Positions 1-10,092 of a stretch of 64,000 nt of DNA are shown one piece after another (the first letter of the stretch is position 1; each line of letters begins with the position of its first letter). The translations under genes and the position numbers were made by a program. The stretch covers positions 72,743 to 136,742 of the forward strand of contig JAZLJO010000014.1 of the NCBI GenBank assembly GCA_045617905.1. The letters run 5' to 3'. Under the pieces are notes generated by a model, which saw only the letters and a list, made by a program, of their open reading frames with translations, did not search any database and was not told the origin of the DNA. This DNA is from Candidatus Enterousia sp. (GTDB lineage: Bacteria; Pseudomonadota; Alphaproteobacteria; Rs-D84).

Positions 1-336
1 TAATTTACCTTCATCCGTTAATGTGTATGTTTGAACCGTTTCTAAAAATTTGAAATAATCTTGTTCTATTTCCATTTCATTCAAAGGCCCCATCATCATT
101 GTTGATGCAATTGGTCCAAAATTGATTTTATCACCGTTTAATTCATACGTTCCGTTATATAAATTAACGACACGACCATTTACACGCATTTCATCATTGG
201 CAAACGTTAAAACAATATTTGCCCCACGTTCATCGGAAACAAAATTTGTGCCACGCAATGGATTTGCATTATCATTTTGTCCACATGCCGCAACCGTTAA
301 CAATGAAACAGATATTAAGACATTTTTTATATTCAT
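1..336 (-). CDS. META-domain (HslJ-like) lipoprotein, 3'-truncated by window edge
   Basis: Minus-strand ORF missing from the track because it has no in-window stop. ATG at 336 follows AAAGGGG. Signal peptide plus lipobox LTVAAC. META-domain-like pattern NGRVVNLYNGTYEL..GPIASTMMMGP. Confidence 0.5.
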   Translation of the reverse strand, partial: MNIKNVLISVSLLTVAACGQNDNANPLRGTNFVSDERGANIVLTFANDEMRVNGRVVNLYNGTYELNGDKINFGPIASTMMMGPLNEMEIEQDYFKFLETVQTYTLTDEGKL

Positions 337-429
337 TATTTACCCCTTTTCCATAATAAATTGGTTTTATGACACAAATCATACACCAGACAAAAAAATA
401 TGTAAATATGAAATAAATCATAAAAAAAT

Positions 430-457
430 ACGCATCAAACAATGATGCGTATTTTAT
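430..457. terminator. intrinsic terminator hairpin, bidirectional (acgcatca-aacaa-tgatgcgt, flanked by A6/T-run)
   Basis: Perfect 8-bp stem with T tract on both strands, immediately downstream of the minus-strand tRNA-Asp. Confidence 0.5.
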
Positions 458-462
458 AACTG

Positions 463-539
463 TGGCGGGATGTAAGGGGCTCGAACCCTCGACCTTCTGC
501 GTGACAGGCAGACGCTCTAACCAGCTGAGCTAACACCCC
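463..539 (-). tRNA. tRNA-Asp (anticodon GTC)
   Basis: Reverse complement reads GGGGTGTTAGCTCAGCTGGTTAGAGCGTCTGCCTGTCACGCAGAAGGTCGAGGGTTCGAGCCCCTTACATCCCGCCA. Canonical cloverleaf, anticodon loop CUGUCAC, T-loop GGTTCGAGCC, encoded CCA. Confidence 0.85.
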
Positions 540-866
540 AAGCGCTTTATATAATATACTGTTTGAAATATAAATGCAAGTATTTTTTAAAATTTTATCA
601 ATTAATTATACATAATTGTATATCTGAATAAAAAAACATAACCAATAAAATCTAACCAACGTTTTTTATTCATGCAGGAATCATATCACAAAATGCCAGA
701 AATCTCAATCTTTTTGTCTTTAATTATAATAAAAATCTAACGTTCGATTAATCTTTCTTCTAAAACACAAAAATATCCCGATCCACAGGTTGATTGTGAT
801 ATTGCAAATATCGACATTATTGAACGTAATTTACACCCCGATATATTAAAAATATTATTATCGGAC

Positions 867-1721
867 ATGACAACCGGGCATAACATTGTATGGGCATGTG
901 ATGATTATATTATATATGGGAATAAATATAAACCCGGCTGTCAAATCACAAAAGATTTAATCACACACAAAACAAATAAAAACATTATCCAACCACGTAT
1001 TTTAAAAGAAAAGTGTTATCAACGCGAACGCACCAAAACCCATGCCGAGGTTTTTACCCCATCCTGGATATGCAATGAAATGAACAATTATTGTGATGAA
1101 GAATGGTTTGGCAGAAAAGACGTTTTTAACACAGTAAATAATGATAACACATGGACGGCGACAACAACACCAATATATGTCCCGGGTGACAAACAATGGC
1201 ATCAATACGTTTTATCAAAACGAATTGAAATTACCTGTGGCGAGGCCCCGTATTTAGTATCACCATACGACACAACCACAGGAAAAATTATTCCAATTGA
1301 ACAACGTATCGGACAATTGGACCGAAAATTACGTGTAATAAACGAAAATATGAATTCGGAACGTTATTGGTTTGATTGGGCGGCAAAGGCATACCAAAGC
1401 ACATACGGATATGAATTTCAGGGTGATAATTTATTATTGGCACGTGAAAATCTGCTTTATACGTTTATTGATAATTACAAATTTAAATTTGGCAAAGAAC
1501 CAAATATTCAAAAACAAAAGAAAATAGCCCAAATAATCGCATGGAATATGTGGCAAATGAACGGTTTAACAGATTGCACACCGTTCAGTTCTGAATCCGG
1601 CGACTTTTATCAAATGGGCATGTTTGGCAGTGCCCCATTACCATGCCGGATTATTGATTGGGAAAAAAATTTACAAATATTTTTCAAAGATTTAAAAAAG
1701 GAAAACAGCAATGAAATTTGA
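867..1721 (+). CDS. N6-adenine DNA methyltransferase (Eco57I/TaqI-like gamma class), N-terminal fragment; reading frame breaks in an A6 run
   Basis: Motif I-like AEVFTPSWICNEM and an SAM-loop-like IEITCGEAPYL. The frame ends 10 nt after the start of the next ORF, which continues in the +1 frame. Confidence 0.55.
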   Translation: MTTGHNIVWACDDYIIYGNKYKPGCQITKDLITHKTNKNIIQPRILKEKCYQRERTKTHAEVFTPSWICNEMNNYCDEEWFGRKDVFNTVNNDNTWTATTTPIYVPGDKQWHQYVLSKRIEITCGEAPYLVSPYDTTTGKIIPIEQRIGQLDRKLRVINENMNSERYWFDWAAKAYQSTYGYEFQGDNLLLARENLLYTFIDNYKFKFGKEPNIQKQKKIAQIIAWNMWQMNGLTDCTPFSSESGDFYQMGMFGSAPLPCRIIDWEKNLQIFFKDLKKENSNEI

Positions 1722-2724
1722 TTTTTGCATTGGTAATCCACCATATCAGGAAATGAAACAAGATACTTCTGATAAACCTGTTTATGATAAATTTATGATT
1801 GCTTCATATGATATCAGTACTGTTGTAGAATTAATTACACCTGCTAGATTTTTATTTAACGCAGGAAAAACTCAAAAGCACTGGAATGAAAAAATGCTTA
1901 ATGATGAGCATTTTAAAGTTTTGCATTATTTTCCAGATGCAGGCAAGGTATTTCCTAATACAGATATTAAAGGGGGAGTAGCTGTTCATTTATACAACAA
2001 AACTCAAAAATTTGCAGCAACACAAATTTTTACATCATTCATGGAATTAAATAGCATTTTAAACAAGGTCCGTGCAAATGAAAATTTTTTTATAGATTCT
2101 TATGTTTATTCAGAAAGTAGTTATAGGTATACTCAAGAACTTATGAATGAAAAACATGAATTAGTCCAGAGATTAAAAAAATCCAGTCAAAATTTTGTTG
2201 CTTCTAATGCATTTGAAATTCTTCCGGAAATATTTTCTGAAAAAAGGAATGATGATGACATAGAAATAATAGGACGTTTTTGTAATTCTAGAACATCACG
2301 ATTTATAAAAAAGAAATATATCAATGGCCCAGATAATTTTGATAAGTATAAAATATTTTTACCTAAAGCAAATGGTTCAGGAGCATTAGGAGAAATACTT
2401 TCTACTCCACTGATTGGCCATCCACTGATTGGCCATACCCAAACATTTATATCCATAGGATTGTTTGAAAAAGAATCTGAGGCAGAAGCCTGTTTAAAAT
2501 ATATAAAAAGTAAATTTGCAAGAGTTTTGCTAGGTGTCCTTAAAATAACACAAGATAATAAGAAAAATGTTTGGAAGTATGTCCCATTACAAGATTTTAC
2601 AGAAAATTCGGATATAGATTGGTCAAAGTCTATTCATGAAATAGATTTACAATTATATAAAAAATACGGTTTGGATGATGCCGAGATTGATTTTATCGAA
2701 ACACATGTAAGGGAGATGCAGTAA
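1711..2724 (+). CDS. N6-adenine DNA methyltransferase C-terminal fragment (catalytic motif IV NPPY plus target-recognition region)
   Basis: FDFCIGNPPYQ motif IV at the N-terminus. Its frame is open upstream only back to 1696, inside the A6 run (1694-1699). Deleting one A fuses it in frame with 867-1721. Confidence 0.6.
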   Translation: MKFDFCIGNPPYQEMKQDTSDKPVYDKFMIASYDISTVVELITPARFLFNAGKTQKHWNEKMLNDEHFKVLHYFPDAGKVFPNTDIKGGVAVHLYNKTQKFAATQIFTSFMELNSILNKVRANENFFIDSYVYSESSYRYTQELMNEKHELVQRLKKSSQNFVASNAFEILPEIFSEKRNDDDIEIIGRFCNSRTSRFIKKKYINGPDNFDKYKIFLPKANGSGALGEILSTPLIGHPLIGHTQTFISIGLFEKESEAEACLKYIKSKFARVLLGVLKITQDNKKNVWKYVPLQDFTENSDIDWSKSIHEIDLQLYKKYGLDDAEIDFIETHVREMQ

Positions 2725-5700
2725 TGAAAAAACTGAATATCAAAACTCGTTCTGCTGTTGTTCCAATGTGTTATGCATATACCACACCGGAAATACAGCG
2801 ACATAATGGTTGGACAAAAATAGGTTATACTGAAAATGATGTAAAACAACGTATTGCACAGCAAACACAAACCGCGGATGTTCGGACTGTTTTACATTGG
2901 TACGAAAAAGCAATCTATGCAGATGGCAGTGGTGATACTTTTTCTGACAAAGATTTTCATACATATTTAATCAAAAATGATGTTGCGCGTTTAGATAATA
3001 CTGAATGGTTCAAAATATTACCGGATAAATCCCATGATATGTTTTTCGATTTTACTAAAAATCGTGGGGTATTAACCAGTTTTGGCGCAATTGATTATAC
3101 ATTACGCGCAGAACAAGCAAAGGCCGTTCATGATGCCAAAAGATATTTTGATGCTAAAACATCTTTAGATGAACCAGAATTTTTATGGAATGCCAAACCA
3201 AGATTTGGAAAGACATTATCAGCCTATGATTTATGTAAACAATTGGGGGCACAAAAGGTTTTAATTTTAACCAATTATCCTGCGGTCGCAAATTCTTGGT
3301 ATAATGATTATGTTAAATTTTTGGGAACAGAATCCGGATATTATTTCGTTAGCCAGGTCGATGCATTAAAAGGAAAAAAATACGTTTTAAGCCGTGAACA
3401 ATATACAAAACATTTATCAGACCCCAACCATAAGGGATGTATTGAATTTATATCGCTGCAGGATTTAAAAGGATCCAGATATTTTGGTGGACAATACGAT
3501 AAATTACAGGAAGTGGCCACGATAAAATGGGATTTGTTAATTATTGATGAAGCACATTATGCCGTAGATACATTTAAATCCGGTATTGCTTTTGATCATA
3601 TACAACGAAAATACACATTACATTTATCTGGCACCCCGTTCAAAGCCATTGCAAATATGAAATTTGATAACGATGCCATATTCAATTGGACATATGTTGA
3701 TGAACAAACCGCAAAACGTAACTGGCCAAAATATAGCGAAGAAGAAAATCCATATGCTGTGATGCCACAACTAAATATGTACACATATCAAATGTCCGAT
3801 ATTGTGCGCGATAAATTACAACACGGTGCAGATTTTGATAATGATGGTGAAGACGAGGCGTATGCATTTGATTTGAACGAATTTTTTATAACAAATGCAG
3901 ATGGAAATTTTAAACACGACGAATCTGTTGATAAATTTTTGAATGCACTGGTTACACAAACCCGTTTCCCATTCTCTACACCTGAATTACGTAATGAATT
4001 AAATCATACATTCTGGTTATTACAATATGTTGACAGTTGTAAAGCATTAGCTAAAAAGTTAAAAGAACATCCCGTATTTAAAGAATACGAGATTGTACTG
4101 GCTGCTGGTGATGGCAGACTAGATGAAGAAGAAGCAAGTATAAAAGCATACGATAAGGTTGTTAAGGCAATAAAAGAACACGATAAAACCATTACATTAT
4201 CCGTTCGTCAACTGGCAACCGGTATCACAATTCCGGAATGGACAGCAGTATTGATGTTAGGTAACATGAAAACGCCTGAATTATATATGCAGGCTGCATT
4301 TCGTGCACAAAATCCATGCTTGTTTAAAACAAAAGATGGCAAATTGCAACGGAAAGAAAATGCATATGTATTTGATTTTGATCCATCCAGAACATTAACT
4401 GTGTTTGATGACTTTGCAAACAATAACCATTCTGGGACTGCTGGGGGACGTGGCGATACAGATACACGAAAAAAACAAATAAAAGAACTTTTAAACTTCT
4501 TTCCTGTATATGGCGAAGATGATAGTGGTGAAATGATATCGTTGGATCCAGAAAAGGTTTTGACGATACCACGCAAAATTCACGCCAAAGAAGTGGTTCA
4601 TCGTGGTTTTATGAGTAACTTCTTATTCCAAAACATACATAATTTATTCAATGCCCCACAAAGCGTAATCGATGCCGTTAATAATATTGCAGCGGTTAAA
4701 GAACCAACAACAATTACCCCTAAAACAGGCGAATCATTGAATATTAATCCAGAAACCGGCGACATTGAAATACCACAAGAAACTGTTGTTGGGTTGGCCA
4801 CAGATGTATTTGGCGAAAAAATTTATGGCAAACAAGAAATTGAATCAAACAAACAACCTGCCATAAATATTCCAGACAACATAAACAAAAATTCTGTTTT
4901 AGATGAAATGAAACAGGATTGTAAAAATAATGTAATAACACCTTTAATAGATAAAGCAAAAGAAAAATACGGCAAAGATGTAACGAAAACTACAATACAA
5001 TCTATCGAAAAAAAAGCTGTTGCTGCGGCTGATTTCGAAATTAATAAAATTTATGCTGATCACCAAATTGAAAAATCCACATTAGAATCACAAAGACAAG
5101 ACGCAATTGCTGTTGCATTAACCAAAGACGACAAAAAAACCGTAGAATTACTGTATGACGCAAAACAGGCAGAATTAGATCAACAATTCAAACAAACAGT
5201 TGCAGAAAAAGAGAAAGAAATAATAAAGCAAACCTGTGAAACGATTGTTACGCAGATTGAAATTAATAAAAATAATAAAGAAAAAAATAAAAAAGAAGAC
5301 GAAATACGCGACCATTTACGTGGTTTTGCACGCAGTATACCGGCGTTTTTGATGGCATATGGGGATGAAAATACCACATTGGAAAATTTTGACACTATTA
5401 TTCCCGCCAATGTTTTTCAAGAGGTCACTGGTATAACGCTGGATCAATTTATAATGTTACGCGATGGTGCAGATTATTTTGATGAACAGACCGGTACTAC
5501 CCAGCATTTTGAAGGACATTTATTTGACCCTATTGTTTTTAATGATTCTGTTATCGAATTTTTAAATAAAAAACAAAACTTGGCAAACTATTTTGATGAA
5601 AATAATACAGAAGATATTTTTGATTACATTCCACCACAAAAAACCAACCAAATATTTACACCCAAAAAGGTTGTGAAAGAAATGGTTAATTATTTGGAAC

Positions 5701-6038
5701 AAGAAAATCCCGGATGTTTTGATGACCCAAATAAGACTTTTATCGACCTGTATATGAAATCAGGTTTGTATATAACAGAAATTGTTAAACGCCTATATAA
5801 TAGTATCGGGTTAAAATCTGCATATCCCAACGGGGCGGAAAGATTAAGACATATATTTGAAAAACAAATATACGGACTTGCCCCAACAGAAATTATATAT
5901 CGTATTGCAACAAATTATATTTTGGGTTTTGATAAAACATCACAAATAACAAAACATAATTTAAAAATGTTTGACACATTACCTTCGGCCCAAAAAGGAA
6001 CACTTGAACAGGATTTAGATAATGTTTTTAAAAATTAA
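2724..6038 (+). CDS. defence-type fusion protein: N-terminal T5orf172/GIY-YIG-like domain + SF2 (DEAH) helicase + coiled-coil linker + C-terminal methyltransferase motif-I fragment (no NPPY)
   Basis: GWTKIGYTEN...RLDNTEWF (T5orf172 signature ending EWF). Walker A RFGKTLSAY, motif II LLIIDEAHY, motif III LHLSGTP, motif VI QAAFRAQNP. C-terminal QIFTPKKVVKEMV...FIDLYMKSGLY resembles Eco57I-family motifs X/I. Start overlaps the previous stop (ATGA). Confidence 0.6.
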   Translation: MKKLNIKTRSAVVPMCYAYTTPEIQRHNGWTKIGYTENDVKQRIAQQTQTADVRTVLHWYEKAIYADGSGDTFSDKDFHTYLIKNDVARLDNTEWFKILPDKSHDMFFDFTKNRGVLTSFGAIDYTLRAEQAKAVHDAKRYFDAKTSLDEPEFLWNAKPRFGKTLSAYDLCKQLGAQKVLILTNYPAVANSWYNDYVKFLGTESGYYFVSQVDALKGKKYVLSREQYTKHLSDPNHKGCIEFISLQDLKGSRYFGGQYDKLQEVATIKWDLLIIDEAHYAVDTFKSGIAFDHIQRKYTLHLSGTPFKAIANMKFDNDAIFNWTYVDEQTAKRNWPKYSEEENPYAVMPQLNMYTYQMSDIVRDKLQHGADFDNDGEDEAYAFDLNEFFITNADGNFKHDESVDKFLNALVTQTRFPFSTPELRNELNHTFWLLQYVDSCKALAKKLKEHPVFKEYEIVLAAGDGRLDEEEASIKAYDKVVKAIKEHDKTITLSVRQLATGITIPEWTAVLMLGNMKTPELYMQAAFRAQNPCLFKTKDGKLQRKENAYVFDFDPSRTLTVFDDFANNNHSGTAGGRGDTDTRKKQIKELLNFFPVYGEDDSGEMISLDPEKVLTIPRKIHAKEVVHRGFMSNFLFQNIHNLFNAPQSVIDAVNNIAAVKEPTTITPKTGESLNINPETGDIEIPQETVVGLATDVFGEKIYGKQEIESNKQPAINIPDNINKNSVLDEMKQDCKNNVITPLIDKAKEKYGKDVTKTTIQSIEKKAVAAADFEINKIYADHQIEKSTLESQRQDAIAVALTKDDKKTVELLYDAKQAELDQQFKQTVAEKEKEIIKQTCETIVTQIEINKNNKEKNKKEDEIRDHLRGFARSIPAFLMAYGDENTTLENFDTIIPANVFQEVTGITLDQFIMLRDGADYFDEQTGTTQHFEGHLFDPIVFNDSVIEFLNKKQNLANYFDENNTEDIFDYIPPQKTNQIFTPKKVVKEMVNYLEQENPGCFDDPNKTFIDLYMKSGLYITEIVKRLYNSIGLKSAYPNGAERLRHIFEKQIYGLAPTEIIYRIATNYILGFDKTSQITKHNLKMFDTLPSAQKGTLEQDLDNVFKN

Positions 6039-6070
6039 TATATGATTTATATAACATAGCATAACTATAA

Positions 6071-6099
6071 AAAACGCCCCAAAAGGGGGCGTTTTTTAT
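6071..6099. terminator. bidirectional intrinsic terminator (aaaaACGCCCCaaaaGGGGGCGTttttt)
   Basis: GC-rich hairpin with A-run and T-run flanks between the convergent 2724-6038 (+) and parC (-). Confidence 0.6.
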
Positions 6100-8328
6100 T
6101 TTCCAAATTTACCACTGCGTGGGAAACCCAATGGAATTGTTCGTCCCTGTGATGCACGTTTTGCCACCCACGGTTTCCAATCATCTAACTTTGTTGTTCC
6201 CCGTCCTGTTGTCCATCCAAAACCATTTGCCGCATCAAAGAACATAACGTCCAAAACATATGTGCGTTCTGCGTTATATTTTTGCAATATTACCCCTTTA
6301 CCACGGGCCATTTCTGGAATTTCAGATGCAGCAAATATTAACAATTTGTCGTTTGAACCGGATACAGCAACCGTATCACCAGATGCCGGCAAACACATTA
6401 TTGCAGGATTCTGTGCATCAACATTCATAACCTGTTTACCATTTTTGGTTTGTGCAATACAGTTTTCACCGGATACAACAAATCCATTTCCATGTCGTGC
6501 AACAACCAAATATTTAGCATTCGTATCCAAAACAAATATACGAACAATTTCTTCATCCGCACCAATATCCGCCATCATACGAACAGATTCACCAAAACCA
6601 CGCGCCGATGGCAAATCGTTTGCCGATAATGTAAACATTTTCCCAGATGATGTAAACATATTAATTTTATCCGTGGACATCGCATGGAATGCCGTCTGCA
6701 ATGCATCACCTTCTTTGAATTTAACATCTAAATTATTCAAATCCATATGCCCCTTGGCGGCACGAATCCACCCCATTGTCGACAATATTACCGTCAATGG
6801 TTCTTTTTCAATAAATTCATCTGTATTAACAACGATTTCTTCAGATTGTTCCGCCCACTCTGAACGACGACGACCCAACGCTGTTTTTTTATCATAACGC
6901 TTTTTAATATCTGCAAACCATAACTTTAATTGATCATTTTGTGCAGATTCATTCGCCAATAAATCTTGTAATTTTTGCTGTTCTGCACGTAAATCCGCAT
7001 CTTCACGACGAATTTCCATTTCTTCCAATTTACGCAAACTGCGCAGACGGGTATTTAATATGGCTTCGACCTGAATGTCCGTCAAATTAAATTCTGCAAT
7101 CAATACAGTCTTTGGATCATCTTCGTTACGGATAATTTCAATAACACGATCCAAATTTAAATACACAATCAATAAACCACCCAAAACCTCCAAACGGCGT
7201 TCAATGTTTGTTAAACGCCACTTTGTACGACGTTGTAAAACATCTTTTTGATGTGCAATAAATTCACGTAAAACATCACCAATTCCCATAACACGTGGTG
7301 CCCCTTTGGAATCAATGACATTCAAATTCATATTAAACCGATATTCTAAATCTGTTGTGGCAAACAGATGGGCCATCATCTTATCAGCCGGCACATTACG
7401 ATTTTTTGGTGTAATAACAATCCGAACATCGGTTGTTGATTCATCTGCGATATCATCAACCAATGGTAATTTTTTAGAATCGATTAACCCTGCAATCTGT
7501 TCAACCAATTTTGATTTTATTATCCCGTATGGAATTTCTGTAATCACAGCCTGCCATCCACCACGTTCCAAATTTTCAACAGACCATTTTGCACGAATAC
7601 GAAATGCCCCACGTCCTGTTTCATAATTCTTAATAATGGTATCCATGCTATCAATCAAAATACCACCGGTTGGAAAATCTGGCCCCGGCATTCTTTTTAT
7701 AATCTGGGCCGTCGTCGCATCGGGGTTATCTATAACCAATGCCAATGCATCACAAACCTCGGCCACGTTGTGTGTTGGGATATTTGTTGCCATACCAACC
7801 GCAATTCCCATACCACCATTGGCCAACAAATTTGGAAAAGCACCCGGCATAACAGTCGGTTCCAGCGTTGTACCATCAAAATTTGGCATCATTTCAACAC
7901 TGTTTTCATCGATTCCTTCCATAATCAACATGGCGGCATCAGTCATTTTTGATTCAGTATAACGGTATGCCGCCTGCGGGTCACCATCAATATTACCAAA
8001 GTTTCCCTGACCATCAATTAAAGGATATCTGACCGAAAAGTCTTGGGCCAAACGCACCATCGCATCATAAACAGAACTGTCACCATGTGGATGATAATGT
8101 CCCAACACATCACCAACAACCGTGGCACACTTACGGAACGCAGCCGCAGGCGACAATTTTTGGCGTAACATGGAATACAAAATACGACGGTGCACAGGTT
8201 TCAATCCATCACGTACATCAGGCAATGCACGTGATACAATGGTACTGACCGCATATGATAAATAGCGTTCGGACAACGCCTCGGCTAATTGTTGTGAATC
8301 AATATTCTCTATTATTTCCTTACTCATG
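6096..8328 (-). CDS. parC: DNA topoisomerase IV subunit A (ParC); GyrA not excluded
   Basis: [20 protein letters not shown] active-site region. ~743 aa and no obvious GyrA box favour ParC. Start taken at MSKEII; the track's longer N-terminal extension is judged spurious. Confidence 0.65.
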
Positions 8329-8402
8329 ACGACTGAAAATTTATAACATTTCAAAAAAAATAACAACAGAAAAATAGCCCACACATTTTGTAGGCCATAT
8401 TT

Positions 8403-8678
8403 TTATCCAATTTTATGTTTTATTTCACGTATGCGCGCTAAAATTTCACGTAAATCCGCATCTGTTACAGATGGCGTCGGTCGGTTTTGCAATTCATCCG
8501 CCAAAACAATACATAACGTCGCCAACAAAGAATTTTCAGGCAATGGCCCTATTTTATCCAAAATTTCACGTGCACGTGCATCAACCATACGTCCCAAATC
8601 AATCAATCGAGATTCTTGACCGTCTTCACATCCCATGGGATAATTTTTATTAACAATCGGTATTGAAACAACACTCAT
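8403..8678 (-). CDS. zapA: cell division protein ZapA
   Basis: 91 aa with the ZapA pattern IPIVNKNYPMGCEDGQESRLIDLGRMVDARA..LLATLCIVLADEL. Overlaps the upstream gene by ATGA. Confidence 0.6.
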   Translation of the reverse strand: MSVVSIPIVNKNYPMGCEDGQESRLIDLGRMVDARAREILDKIGPLPENSLLATLCIVLADELQNRPTPSVTDADLREILARIREIKHKIG

Positions 8679-8884
8679 GATAAATTCTCTAATATTGATA
8701 TTGATTGATCAATCAGTTCAGCTGCCCTTGCGTGTTCATCCCGCAATATTTTAACCTGTTTATTCAAAACAGCAACTTCTAAATCCGTTTGCCGTCCTGC
8801 ATCATTCGCCATTCCACGCAGGCGGGATGCAGCCTCTTCCAGACTGGTTAATTCTTGAAAAATTTGTTGTTTTAAATCTGCCAT
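8675..8884 (-). CDS. DUF4164-like coiled-coil protein (ZapB-like), upstream partner of zapA
   Basis: 69-aa coiled-coil. A DUF4164–zapA pair is typical of alphaproteobacteria. Confidence 0.45.
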   Translation of the reverse strand: MADLKQQIFQELTSLEEAASRLRGMANDAGRQTDLEVAVLNKQVKILRDEHARAAELIDQSISILENLS

Positions 8885-8967
8885 ACTGCCAGTTTAAAAT
8901 ATTTTTTATATGCGTTCAATACAAAATATGATATAATATACCAGATTAATTTATGGGGAAAAAATCA

Positions 8968-10092
8968 ATGAAAACAAAAATCATATATATTTCAGGCAGT
9001 GAATTTTTTGACATGTCCGATATCCGGACCGCATTTGAACAGGTTCGGACCGCTGCATCTTTGCCAACAGACACCGTATTATTTGGCATCCCCGTTGATT
9101 CTGATGACGCATTGGCAACAATTAATACCAATAATATAAAAATTTCAATATCAAACGAAACAAATAAAATGGACGAAAATCCCCAAACAAACGTCCCAGA
9201 AATTACCGAGAATACAATTACATCTGACATAACAGATAATGATAATAATAATAATAATACAATTTCACAAAACGACCAGGTATCTGTTACAGACACAGAC
9301 ACCCCAAAGGTCCCTAAGAAATCCCGTCGTCGTATAAAAACAGAATCGGAACCTGTTTTAAATCATAAAGATACCCCACACACAGTTGACGATACAGATA
9401 TCACATCCATTTCAACAACAGACGCCACACCCGTTCCAATTTTATCGGTATTGGCAAAACATAACAATAACACAGAATCTGTTTCACAATCTGACGCCAC
9501 AGATATTCCAGATTATAAACCAACATCAGGAATCGTTTCAGAAACATCTGAAACAATTGATGATTCAAACGATGTTGAACAAAATACAATCGAACAATCC
9601 CAAAAAAATCCAATATCAATTGATGAAGAAATTGTTGCTAACGATCCCGACACAATAAACCAAATTGAAAATATTGCCGATAAAATCGCGGAAAATCCAC
9701 CAATGGAAATAACAACATTGGAAGAATTACTGGATGGGATGGAACCATTAAGTGAATTTCATGAGACAAAACAATCTATAGTTTCATGGGACGAATCTTC
9801 AACTGAAAACACAACAACATATCAAACCACCGACGCAACAACCGAAGATGGAACCGATATGACATTAGAAAAATTGGCCAAAGATTTATTAAACAGTGAA
9901 AATCAGTATTCCGAAACACCACATGAATCCCACAGTAAAATCGGCAAATTAAAAAACATATTACCATTTAAAAAAGCCAAACGCGATGATTCTGGCATAA
10001 TGGGTATGGGCGATTTATTCGGATGGGCAGGCGTGGCAAATGATGACGATTTTACCATGCCAGGATTTTTCACCAGCACATCTAAAAAATAA
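8968..10092 (+). CDS. hypothetical acidic, Asn/Asp/Thr/Ser-rich, largely disordered protein with a structured N-terminal ~60 aa
   Basis: ORF with GGGGA 9 nt upstream of the ATG at 8968 (track starts it at 8953). Low-complexity poly-N and acidic tracts. No recognisable domain. Confidence 0.45.
   Translation: MKTKIIYISGSEFFDMSDIRTAFEQVRTAASLPTDTVLFGIPVDSDDALATINTNNIKISISNETNKMDENPQTNVPEITENTITSDITDNDNNNNNTISQNDQVSVTDTDTPKVPKKSRRRIKTESEPVLNHKDTPHTVDDTDITSISTTDATPVPILSVLAKHNNNTESVSQSDATDIPDYKPTSGIVSETSETIDDSNDVEQNTIEQSQKNPISIDEEIVANDPDTINQIENIADKIAENPPMEITTLEELLDGMEPLSEFHETKQSIVSWDESSTENTTTYQTTDATTEDGTDMTLEKLAKDLLNSENQYSETPHESHSKIGKLKNILPFKKAKRDDSGIMGMGDLFGWAGVANDDDFTMPGFFTSTSKK

Follow-up and report, generated by a model that had tools for sequence, protein, structure and literature searches.

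Half of a methyltransferase fold at the end of a helicase and its counterpart in a separate gene: a putative three-gene restriction–modification system in Candidatus Enterousia sp.

Why would a helicase end in the front part of a DNA methyltransferase? This question is raised by a locus at positions 867–6038 of a stretch of 64,000 nucleotides (nt) from Candidatus Enterousia sp. (contig JAZLJO010000014.1; hereafter the window), in which the last of three genes encodes a helicase of 1104 amino acids (aa) with a methyltransferase lobe at its C-terminus. A first-pass annotation had taken this lobe for either the remnant of a single-chain enzyme truncated at its 3′ end or a deliberately retained half-domain for S-adenosylmethionine (SAM) sensing or dimerisation. 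The three tightly packed open reading frames (ORFs), all on the plus strand, are as follows.

867–1721, plus strand: ORF-A, 284 aa, free-standing A-type front half of a gamma-class N6-adenine methyltransferase
1711–2724, plus strand: ORF-B, 337 aa, back-half cassette running from NPPY through the target-recognition domain (TRD)
2724–6038, plus strand: ORF-C, 1104 aa, nuclease-translocase subunit whose C-terminus is a C-type methyltransferase front half

With moderate confidence, we propose that the locus is a three-gene Type ISP-like restriction–modification (RM) system in which the gamma methyltransferase fold is split between motifs III and IV and ORF-B is shared by two front halves. The proposal is built on homology, the position of the break point, colinearity with single-chain relatives, a rule of stoichiometry, conservation and cassette exchange, each of which the comparisons demonstrated.

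The C-terminal tail of ORF-C consists of the following elements.

5610–6035, plus strand: C-type methyltransferase front half, ORF-C aa 963–1104
5646–5684, plus strand: motif X, NQIFTPKKVVKEM, aa 975–987
5736–5786, plus strand: motif I, non-canonical, TFIDLYMKSGLY, with the quoted peptide TFIDLYMKSGLYITEIV, aa 1005–1021
5865–5891, plus strand: motif II region, QIYGLAPTE, aa 1048–1056, without Glu
5964–5984, plus strand: motif III, KMFDTLP, aa 1081–1087
6003–6035, plus strand: last helix, LEQDLDNVFKN

The motifs appear in the order of the fold (NQIFTPKKVVKEM, FIDLYMKSG, QIYGLAP, FDTLP), and AlphaFold2 (AF2) assigned the tail the secondary structure helix, β1, αA, β2, αB, β3. The pattern [NDS][PSA]P[YFW] was absent throughout the 1104 aa of ORF-C. 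The first-pass description of the C-terminus as a motif X/I lobe without NPPY was borne out: the peptide it quoted was found, and the lobe is homologous to the front halves of single-chain relatives. Motif I keeps the Asp and the Ser-Gly with Lys in place of the first Gly, and the motif II position is occupied by Ala (GLAPTE).

Direct searches with the isolated tail returned nothing significant in Pfam, NCBIfam, PADLOC or PDB, either by phmmer or by profile, and matches to Csn2 and lectins (E > 0.03) were discarded as noise. An hhalign comparison with the ORF-A profile suffered from insufficient depth of the two alignments and recovered no more than the FTP motif (E = 0.068, probability < 1%); it was replaced by a search of a representative library and by a hidden Markov model (HMM) built from architecture types 1–3. 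The profile of the tail, made from the last 214 aa of 19 orthologues (alignment A1), retrieved 1006 proteins from 1.84 billion cluster representatives, and in many of them the tail domain was internal and was followed directly by MKFD..GNPPYQ. The tail HMM aligned in register with canonical front halves of the A′ type at 20–24 bits (E of ~1e-3 to 1e-2 at Z = 1e6), with 'qifTPkkvvkkM...fiDlYvkSGlyi' of the HMM facing 'EVFTPKRIVKKM...FLEPAAGEGAFL' of the canonical halves. The similarity to a methyltransferase fold thus became visible to profiles through the relatives, the direct searches having been empty. Against Pfam PF07669 (Eco57I) the tail alone gave no match and ORF-B matched with E = 2.9e-14 at profile positions 73–171, so that the membership of the tail in this family follows by transitivity via the single-chain relatives.

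These relatives are proteins of 1300–1530 aa in which the tail domain runs straight into MKFDVVIGNPPYQ and a DNA-recognition domain. At least 19 of the 150 listed representatives were full-length nuclease–helicase–methyltransferase–TRD single chains, which are relatives with the intact C-terminal methyltransferase and TRD that the first-pass annotation had suggested looking for. Behind the tail domain they read '(M/L)KFD(V/A)(V/I)(V/I)GNPPYQ' followed by ~340 residues, and the C-terminus of ORF-C coincides exactly with the onset of β4 (MKFD) in them, which places the break point between the last front-half helix and β4. The only NPPY-fused half of the single chains is C-type and shows the same deviations in motifs I and II as the tail, F(I/A)DLYxKSG and 'YG.AP(S/T)', indicating that the odd motifs are the norm of the family and not a sign of decay. 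Pfam models cross the joint: positions 1–171 of Eco57I bridge the end of the tail domain and NPPY in P0197 and P0259, and positions 26–138 of N6_Mtase run from motif X to NPPY in P0193.

The half that is absent from ORF-C was found in ORF-B.

1711–1749, plus strand: β4 and motif IV, MKFDFCIGNPPYQ, followed by motifs V–VIII and the TRD
2611–2670, plus strand: conserved C-terminal helix, DIDWSKSIHEIDLQLYKKYG

NPPY is the first motif of ORF-B, which carries one TRD after its half-fold and also matches PADLOC PDLC03375. By BLASTP, ORF-C aa 1–1094 aligned with residues 1–1072 of P0197 (1431 aa) at 48% identity and ORF-B aa 1–336 with its residues 1087–1430 at 50% identity. Full-length matches of ORF-B to more than 30 single-chain proteins were placed exactly after the tail domain of each, and the post-tail segments of other single chains were matched with E of 1e-83 to 1e-105. 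The alignment to P0197 and the post-tail placement indicate that ORF-C and ORF-B together are colinear with a single-chain nuclease–helicase–methyltransferase–TRD enzyme. The REBASE-derived single-chain PADLOC model REase_MTase_IIG (PDLC03626, 1359 positions) was likewise divided, with ORF-C covering positions 333–623 and ORF-B positions 1012–1359, and no one protein of the window spans the whole model.

A chimera of the window tail (aa 865–1104) and the window ORF-B was modelled by AF2 from 21 natural C–B sequences (alignment A3). The model had a predicted local distance difference test score (pLDDT) of 82.6 and a predicted template modelling score of 0.76, the motif X–III blocks scored 91–95, and the elements were ordered β1-αA-β2-αB-β3-β4(NPPY)-β5-β6-β7 as in a class-I methyltransferase. 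Foldseek matched the chimera to CamA (E = 2.8e-12), LlaBIII (1.4e-9) and LlaGI (6e-9), and further to HsdM, DrdV, M.BseCI, BrxX and BsaXI. Modelled alone, the tail had a pLDDT of 62, and all of its top eight Foldseek matches were CamA with a best E of 0.1, which is only suggestive. The structure search that had been proposed for the fragment was therefore of little use on the fragment alone and pointed to gamma-class adenine methyltransferases (Foldseek E = 3e-12) once ORF-B was joined to it. Taken together, sequence comparison and modelled structure confirm that the tail of ORF-C is a real but incomplete gamma-class N6-adenine methyltransferase, namely its motif X-I-II-III half. For such a half, with three strands of the Rossmann sheet, SAM binding without a partner is improbable.

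The tail is conserved as well as the motor to which it is attached. Among 119 orthologues, the mean identity to the window was 72.8% for the front half vs 70.0% for the helicase core, and invariant columns made up 36.6% and 35.0%, respectively; all tail motif residues were invariant in 19 diverse orthologues. At least 120 orthologues of ORF-C were found at 60–100% identity, nearly all of 1094–1129 aa, and all 120 among the matches listed share the same terminal junction. The first-pass idea of a deliberately retained half-domain agrees with this conservation, and its stand-alone SAM sensor found no support.

The upstream methyltransferase of the first-pass annotation turned out to be two genes. 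Its motif AEVFTPSWICNEM is indeed encoded in the ORF at 867–1721, but this ORF is a front half by itself, and the sequence from NPPY onwards belongs to ORF-B.

1044–1082, plus strand: ORF-A motif X, AEVFTPSWICNEM, aa 60–72
1224–1256, plus strand: ORF-A motif I, IEITCGEAPYL
1404–1430, plus strand: ORF-A motif II, YGYEFQGDN, with the canonical Glu
1551–1568, plus strand: ORF-A motif III-like, WQMNGL
1686–1721, plus strand: A–B junction, purine-rich Shine-Dalgarno (SD)-like AAAAAAGGA, 8 nt before the ATG of ORF-B (1711)

NPPY is not present in ORF-A, which matched PADLOC MTase_II (PDLC03390, E = 1e-96) and had no Pfam match. Its homologues are either separate or in-frame fusions to a B module ('...FKDLKGDAKMKFDFCIGNPPYQ').

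Eighty loci from different GTDB species carrying the tail were collected, and their ORFs were classed by HMMs for A, B, the tail and the helicase. At 49 of the 50 informative species-level loci, A and B lie directly upstream of the helicase-C gene, whose stop codon is 0–4 residues past the tail in most of the 49. A and B are split at 27–32 of the informative loci and fused at 15–17, and most type-2 loci encode B as a polypeptide of its own; Treponema saccharophilum pTS1 has the order A, B, hel-C, as in the window. B may be joined to C or to A, follow both of them or stand free. An A gene precedes hel-C-B in Pediococcus pRS5 and L. backii, and an A′ gene precedes it in E. faecium, B. cereus and Paenisporosarcina. 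Each of the single-chain loci L014, L015, L017, L018 and L019 has an A or A′ gene upstream that consists of the N-half only. The order is A, hel-C, B at L013 (L. plantarum) and A′, hel, C-B at L021, and the type-3 proteins P0184, P0229 and P0251 are single chains of hel-C-A′-B, P0221 being an N-terminally incomplete example. Every informative locus examined, plasmid and metagenome loci included, thus encodes two front halves and one NPPY+TRD half, except one without detectable B. Proteins of ~550 aa whose second, weak tail-HMM matches had suggested tandem front halves proved to be simple C-B proteins.

The junction between A and B differs widely among loci. In the window the ORF-A stop codon (1719–1721) sits 11 nt into ORF-B, and the same −11 overlap recurs at L010, L029 and L035; other junctions have a −4 overlap or gaps of +1 to +20, and others are spaced by as much as 1.5 kb, with small unrelated genes in the gap. 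B starts at or within one codon of an ATG in all 58 of the 58 junctions, fused ones included, and most of the 58 have a GGAG- or GGA-like SD just 5′ of B, even inside fused genes. A programmed −1 frameshift at A_AAA_AAG in the overlap was rejected, as the −1 frame stops after four codons and B is in the +1 frame, and a general recoding signal was rejected because the junction types are too varied. The A-run of the window at the joint (GGAAAAC) is one A longer than that of the fused allele (GGAAAC) in a 99%-identical strain (P0393), and in five related loci the A-run 5′ of GGA has a length of A3 to A7. Indels that toggle A and B between fusion and separation could explain this variation, as could an assembly error in the window.

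The strain with the fused allele also revealed an exchange of B. The A part of P0393 (MCQ2599378.1) is 99% identical to the window, its fused B part is 53% identical, and the B cassette has its joints at MKFDFCIGNPPYQE and the conserved C-terminal helix. B cassettes have thus been swapped between near-identical strains with A and C constant, and B modules are hypervariable. As to invertible or silent B cassettes, window positions 1–9000 held no meaningful inverted repeats and no recombinase adjoins the window locus.

A further kind of variation was observed within ORF-B.

2406–2436, plus strand: 15-nt perfect tandem repeat, 2.1 copies, encoding PLIGH-PLIGH (ORF-B aa 233–242)

The pentapeptide occurs in 1–7 copies among B homologues (one in P0352, two in the window, four in P0342 and seven, as TPLIG, in P0289) and forms an in-frame spacer of variable copy number immediately ahead of the conserved TQTFISIG. 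In this it recalls the repeats of varying length by which the spacing in Type I HsdS proteins is changed, and the segment (model residues 461–483) is the sole region of the AF2 chimera with a pLDDT < 50.

How would one back half serve two front halves? ORF-C would provide a T5orf172 nuclease, a superfamily 2 (SF2) translocase and a SAM-side half (motifs X, I, II-region and III; β1–3), ORF-B the other half (β4/NPPY to motif VIII) with the TRD and a docking helix, and ORF-A a second, different SAM-side half. Either front half could then have its fold completed in trans by free B. A and B together would make a helicase-free, stand-alone modification methyltransferase, and the C tail with B would serve the nuclease-translocase as its sequence-recognition module, as the methyltransferase–TRD does in LlaGI/LlaBIII, and may also methylate. 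B would resemble a shared, swappable specificity subunit that nevertheless includes half of the catalytic fold. A more specific version, to which we give rather less than even chances, is that B is time-shared: with A it would methylate for self-protection, with the tail of the nuclease-translocase it would license restriction, and competition for the half active site would set the balance. This balance might be re-tuned in evolution by fusing B to either rival, possibly via homopolymer indels at the A–B junction, and the break point might double as the recombination joint for the exchange of specificity cassettes.

Several observations weigh against this proposal. Complementation of the tail by B in trans is deduced from relatives in which the two are covalently joined. 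In about one third of type-2 loci B is fused to A, which would occupy the β4 edge of B, so that the tail would need free B from internal initiation or would have to displace A. The type-3 chains, with two front halves and one back half, suggest that both front halves may be engaged simultaneously, unlike in an either/or model. The C-type half lacks the motif II acid (YGLAPTE vs YGYE/YGIE in A and A′) and has Lys in motif I, and SAM binding by C with B may accordingly be abnormal. The gain in AF2 confidence of the chimera over the tail alone is confounded by its different and more diverse alignment. Finally, the A–B frameshift of the window comes from one assembly, a near-identical strain has the fused form, and it could be an assembly error.

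The same observations bear on the best surviving alternative, in which the tail is a docking module. A and B would then be the sole real methyltransferase and recognition unit, and the tail would be a catalytically dead pseudo-half that has ceased to complete a fold with B; it would instead bind A·B at another place, for example by mimicking a second methyltransferase protomer (Mod2Res, M2S), and so tether the nuclease-translocase to the recognition unit. The fusion of B to A at 15–17 of the 50 loci and the presence of both front halves with one back half in type-3 chains speak for docking. So do the motifs, as the C-type half has no motif II Glu and has Lys for the first Gly of motif I, with A and A′ canonical, and the retention of an A-type half in every architecture, even where C is covalently joined to B. 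However, the same tail motifs are contiguous with β4/NPPY in the single chains and are modelled as one Rossmann domain with them (pLDDT > 90), and the residues of motifs X, I and III that line the pocket are invariant in type-2 tails, which would be needless for mere docking. An isolated half-sheet of three strands would also leave its edge and core exposed, and when folded alone it gives a poor model. We therefore regard docking as unlikely, though a serious contender, and the dimerisation half-domain of the first-pass annotation survives with it as a live rival.

A decaying locus is far less probable. It would require that ORF-C is 3′-truncated, that the A/B split is a frameshift pseudogene and that the locus is defunct, at most an orphan methylase. 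Single-chain ancestors or relatives do exist, the A–B split of the window is one A-run base away from the fused gene of the 99%-identical strain, and degraded derivatives are known (P0124, P0125, P0250, P0311 and the IS256 insertion in L012); moreover, a related but different methyltransferase–helicase–T5orf172 cluster of B. subtilis is reportedly non-functional as an RM system (PMC9973331). On the other hand, over 560 species-level loci, and proteins in the thousands, share one terminal residue, the ORFs are of full length and uninterrupted, and the tail and the helicase core experience equally strong purifying selection. Many independent forms of the split junction are seen, in which the start codon and SD are kept, and a tail identity of 66–75% across phyla argues for active horizontal transfer of a working unit. 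The 3′-truncated remnant of the first-pass annotation fails for a further reason: the missing half persists as ORF-B, which was counted as two genes upstream and has diverged from P0197 to the same extent as the helicase (50% and 48% identity), and the end junction is common to the 120 listed orthologues and the 80 species-level loci. The tail is thus not the product of a 3′ truncation, because the other half was not lost.

A SAM sensor, in which the half-domain alone binds SAM and gates the helicase-nuclease allosterically without a partner half, would account for the conserved motif X, motif I and motif III Asp, but is highly improbable, since the gamma-class cofactor pocket is made of both halves with a contribution from motif IV, the tail has no ribose-binding acid in motif II and models poorly alone, and it ends exactly at the strand boundary that B completes in relatives. 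In Type I and Type III enzymes, SAM is known to act as an allosteric cofactor.

The remainder of ORF-C was assigned as follows.

2772–3017, plus strand: T5orf172 (GIY-YIG-superfamily) putative nuclease domain, ORF-C aa 17–98
3096–4307, plus strand: SF2 helicase-like ATPase, ResIII aa 125–306 and Helicase_C aa 433–528 (Pfam)
4584–5303, plus strand: K/E-rich linker, poorly conserved, aa 621–860
5304–5609, plus strand: conserved region ahead of the methyltransferase half, aa 861–962, LRGFARSIPAFLMAYG..., helices and a β-hairpin

The T5orf172 match (Pfam PF10544) was close to threshold, with E = 4e-4 and 21.3 bits vs a cut-off of 20; the domain is also present in the single-chain relatives, and P0184 additionally matches MUG113. 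The ATPase has the motifs PRFGKTL, IIDEAH, LSGTPF and FRAQN, and there were no Pfam matches in ORF-C beyond aa 528. In ORF-C orthologues the mean identity of the linker is 40%, vs 70% for the flanking domains. The region of aa 861–962 always accompanies the front half, in helicase-less C-B proteins as well.

Among known systems, the Type ISP enzymes LlaGI and LlaBIII are functionally the closest. Enzymes of this type use ATP to translocate from an asymmetric site, cleave upon head-on collision and methylate one strand. The single-chain relatives have the same order of modules (nuclease, SF2 ATPase, linker, gamma N6-adenine methyltransferase, TRD), and an SF2 helicase-like ATPase ahead of a gamma methyltransferase–TRD is found here too, as indicated by Pfam and by the matches of the chimera model. 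In Type ISP enzymes the methyltransferase–TRD is the recognition module of the translocase (PMC4666363, PMC4872093). By analogy, it would be expected to serve as the DNA-recognition module for the translocase here. Neither phmmer nor profile searches of PDB detected sequence similarity to Type ISP enzymes or to any other solved structure. The Type ISP nuclease is of the Mrr/PD-(D/E)xK kind, whereas that of the window is T5orf172/GIY-YIG-like, and Type ISP enzymes are single polypeptides, whereas the window has three ORFs, with the fold cut between motifs III and IV and the back-half gene upstream of the helicase gene. The extra front-half protein A, always present in this family, has to our knowledge no counterpart in Type ISP systems.

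ORF-B is a member of the Eco57I family (PF07669), to which the Type IIG–IIL enzymes MmeI and DrdV and the BREX protein PglX/BrxX belong; DrdV and BrxX were matched by the chimera, and CamA was its best structural match. In Eco57I-family enzymes and CamA, in contrast to the window locus, the fold is complete within a single chain and there is no helicase, and the C-type motifs DLYMKSG and GLAPTE depart from the family consensus DPACGSG and GxE. With Type I, Type III and the Type IIB enzymes BcgI and BsaXI, the window locus would share the use of one recognition unit for both modification and restriction, as well as a nuclease-motor subunit that cannot find sequences alone; B varies as HsdS does, with its partners constant. 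What is shared in those systems, however, is either a TRD protein (HsdS, BcgI-B, BsaXI-S) or Mod, a complete methyltransferase; here it includes half of the catalytic Rossmann fold, for which the locus encodes two different N-terminal halves. Type I systems have a separate HsdR (PD-ExK and SF2), a complete HsdM and an HsdS with two TRDs, in contrast to the divided methyltransferase fold and the one TRD in B, and none of the proteins of the window locus was assigned as HsdR, HsdM or HsdS by NCBIfam or Pfam.

Methyltransferase folds divided between polypeptides have precedents among the C5 enzymes. M.AquI alpha/beta is reportedly a naturally split C5-methyltransferase, and the fold of split M.SssI (C5) has been assembled from two polypeptides (PMC3404938). 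These enzymes belong to another class, have another break point, have one partner per half and have no link to a helicase-nuclease, but they indicate that complementation of the fold is feasible. The DnmA-YeeB-YeeC cluster in defence islands of Bacillus subtilis and Vibrio consists of an MmeI-like gamma methyltransferase, an SF2 helicase and a T5orf172 protein (PMC9973331). It resembles the window locus, with which it is compared here by description, in having three genes, and differs in that its methyltransferase, DnmA, is complete and that the helicase and T5orf172 are found on separate proteins; a half-domain on its helicase has not been reported. Our literature search found no description of the split or of the rule of two front halves, the nearest reports being those on Type ISP enzymes, DnmA-YeeB-YeeC and frameshifted Type ISP genes of H. 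pylori, and neither a solved structure nor a biochemical study of the family was found. Models for the individual parts already exist in databases (PADLOC/REBASE-derived).

The family thus appears to be a widespread, uncharacterised RM family in which one back half serves two front halves. The searches retrieved over 8000 close proteins, and its loci number at least 563 in species-representative genomes; at 66–75% tail identity it extends over Alphaproteobacteria, Verrucomicrobia, Clostridia, Spirochaetes, Actinobacteria and an archaeal metagenome-assembled genome (MAG). Carriers from gut and rumen include Faecalibacterium prausnitzii, Akkermansia, Treponema, Finegoldia and a Methanocorpusculum MAG, and plasmids of lactic acid bacteria and enterococci carry it as well. 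The Methanocorpusculum locus (L079, JAFQBW010000045.1, goat caecum) has 69% tail identity and a split A–B junction, and reflects either inter-domain transfer or a binning artefact. If the proposal is right, the locus would switch between the protection of DNA and attack on it by means of a naturally split enzyme, and would be an RM design in which the specificity subunit incorporates half of the catalytic fold and two complementary halves are encoded for it. Present annotations ('DEAD/DEAH box helicase', 'restriction endonuclease subunit M', 'restriction endonuclease', 'Eco57I domain protein') miss the unity of the trio. The modular B cassette could be a natural scaffold for exchanging recognition specificity, and the natural break point could guide the engineering of split adenine methyltransferases.

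Some loci of the family have neighbours or rearrangements of their own. A serine recombinase gene (Resolvase, PF00239) lies directly upstream of ORF-A homologues at L001–L003 (3148–3744), L007 (2287–2883) and L010–L011 (2196–2786), with phage terminase and ParB-methylase genes nearby at L001–L003. Genes with an 'Eco57I domain' are reportedly enriched targets of programmed inversions (PMC9881135). Degraded or rearranged derivatives were seen in P0124, P0125, P0205, P0228, P0250 and P0311; in some short ones the N-part of A continues directly into the helicase tail, and in P0311 the helicase, from ~aa 335 through the tail, follows the N-part of B. On a Bifidobacterium longum plasmid (L012, 2645–3829), IS256 is inserted between A and B and has removed the NPPY start of B. 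At some Pseudobutyrivibrio loci (L042, 3759–4995; L048, 4827–5087), small unrelated genes stand between A and B; one intervening pair resembles DUF4160 and a partner, and an opposite-strand XRE-type helix-turn-helix gene could encode a controller (C) protein.

The surroundings of the window locus are as follows.

463–539, minus strand: tRNA-Asp(GTC) gene, ~330 nt upstream of ORF-A
6067–6099, unstranded: GC-rich hairpin with flanking A-run and T-run, terminator between ORF-C and the gyrA/parC-like gene
6096–8384, minus strand: gyrA/parC-like gene, convergent with ORF-C

Within the locus, the start of ORF-C overlaps the stop of ORF-B as TAATG. The ORF-C stop (6038) lies right before a strong terminator, as had been noted in the first pass: with its T-run, the hairpin has a folding energy of −20.5 kcal/mol (z = −4.8), and none of 200 shuffles was equally stable. 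It can act as a bidirectional intrinsic terminator, although the list of a simple terminator scan did not contain this site. The G+C content of the RM locus is 31–35% vs 38–42% for its neighbours in a profile of window positions 1–9000, and its position between the tRNA-Asp and gyrA/parC-like genes suggests a small genomic island at a tRNA gene; the search for repeats around it was a general scan. The gyrA/parC-like ORF as listed begins with GTG and a hydrophobic leader of 20 aa, followed by a plausible ATG (MSKEIIEN...), and this internal ATG is probably its true start.

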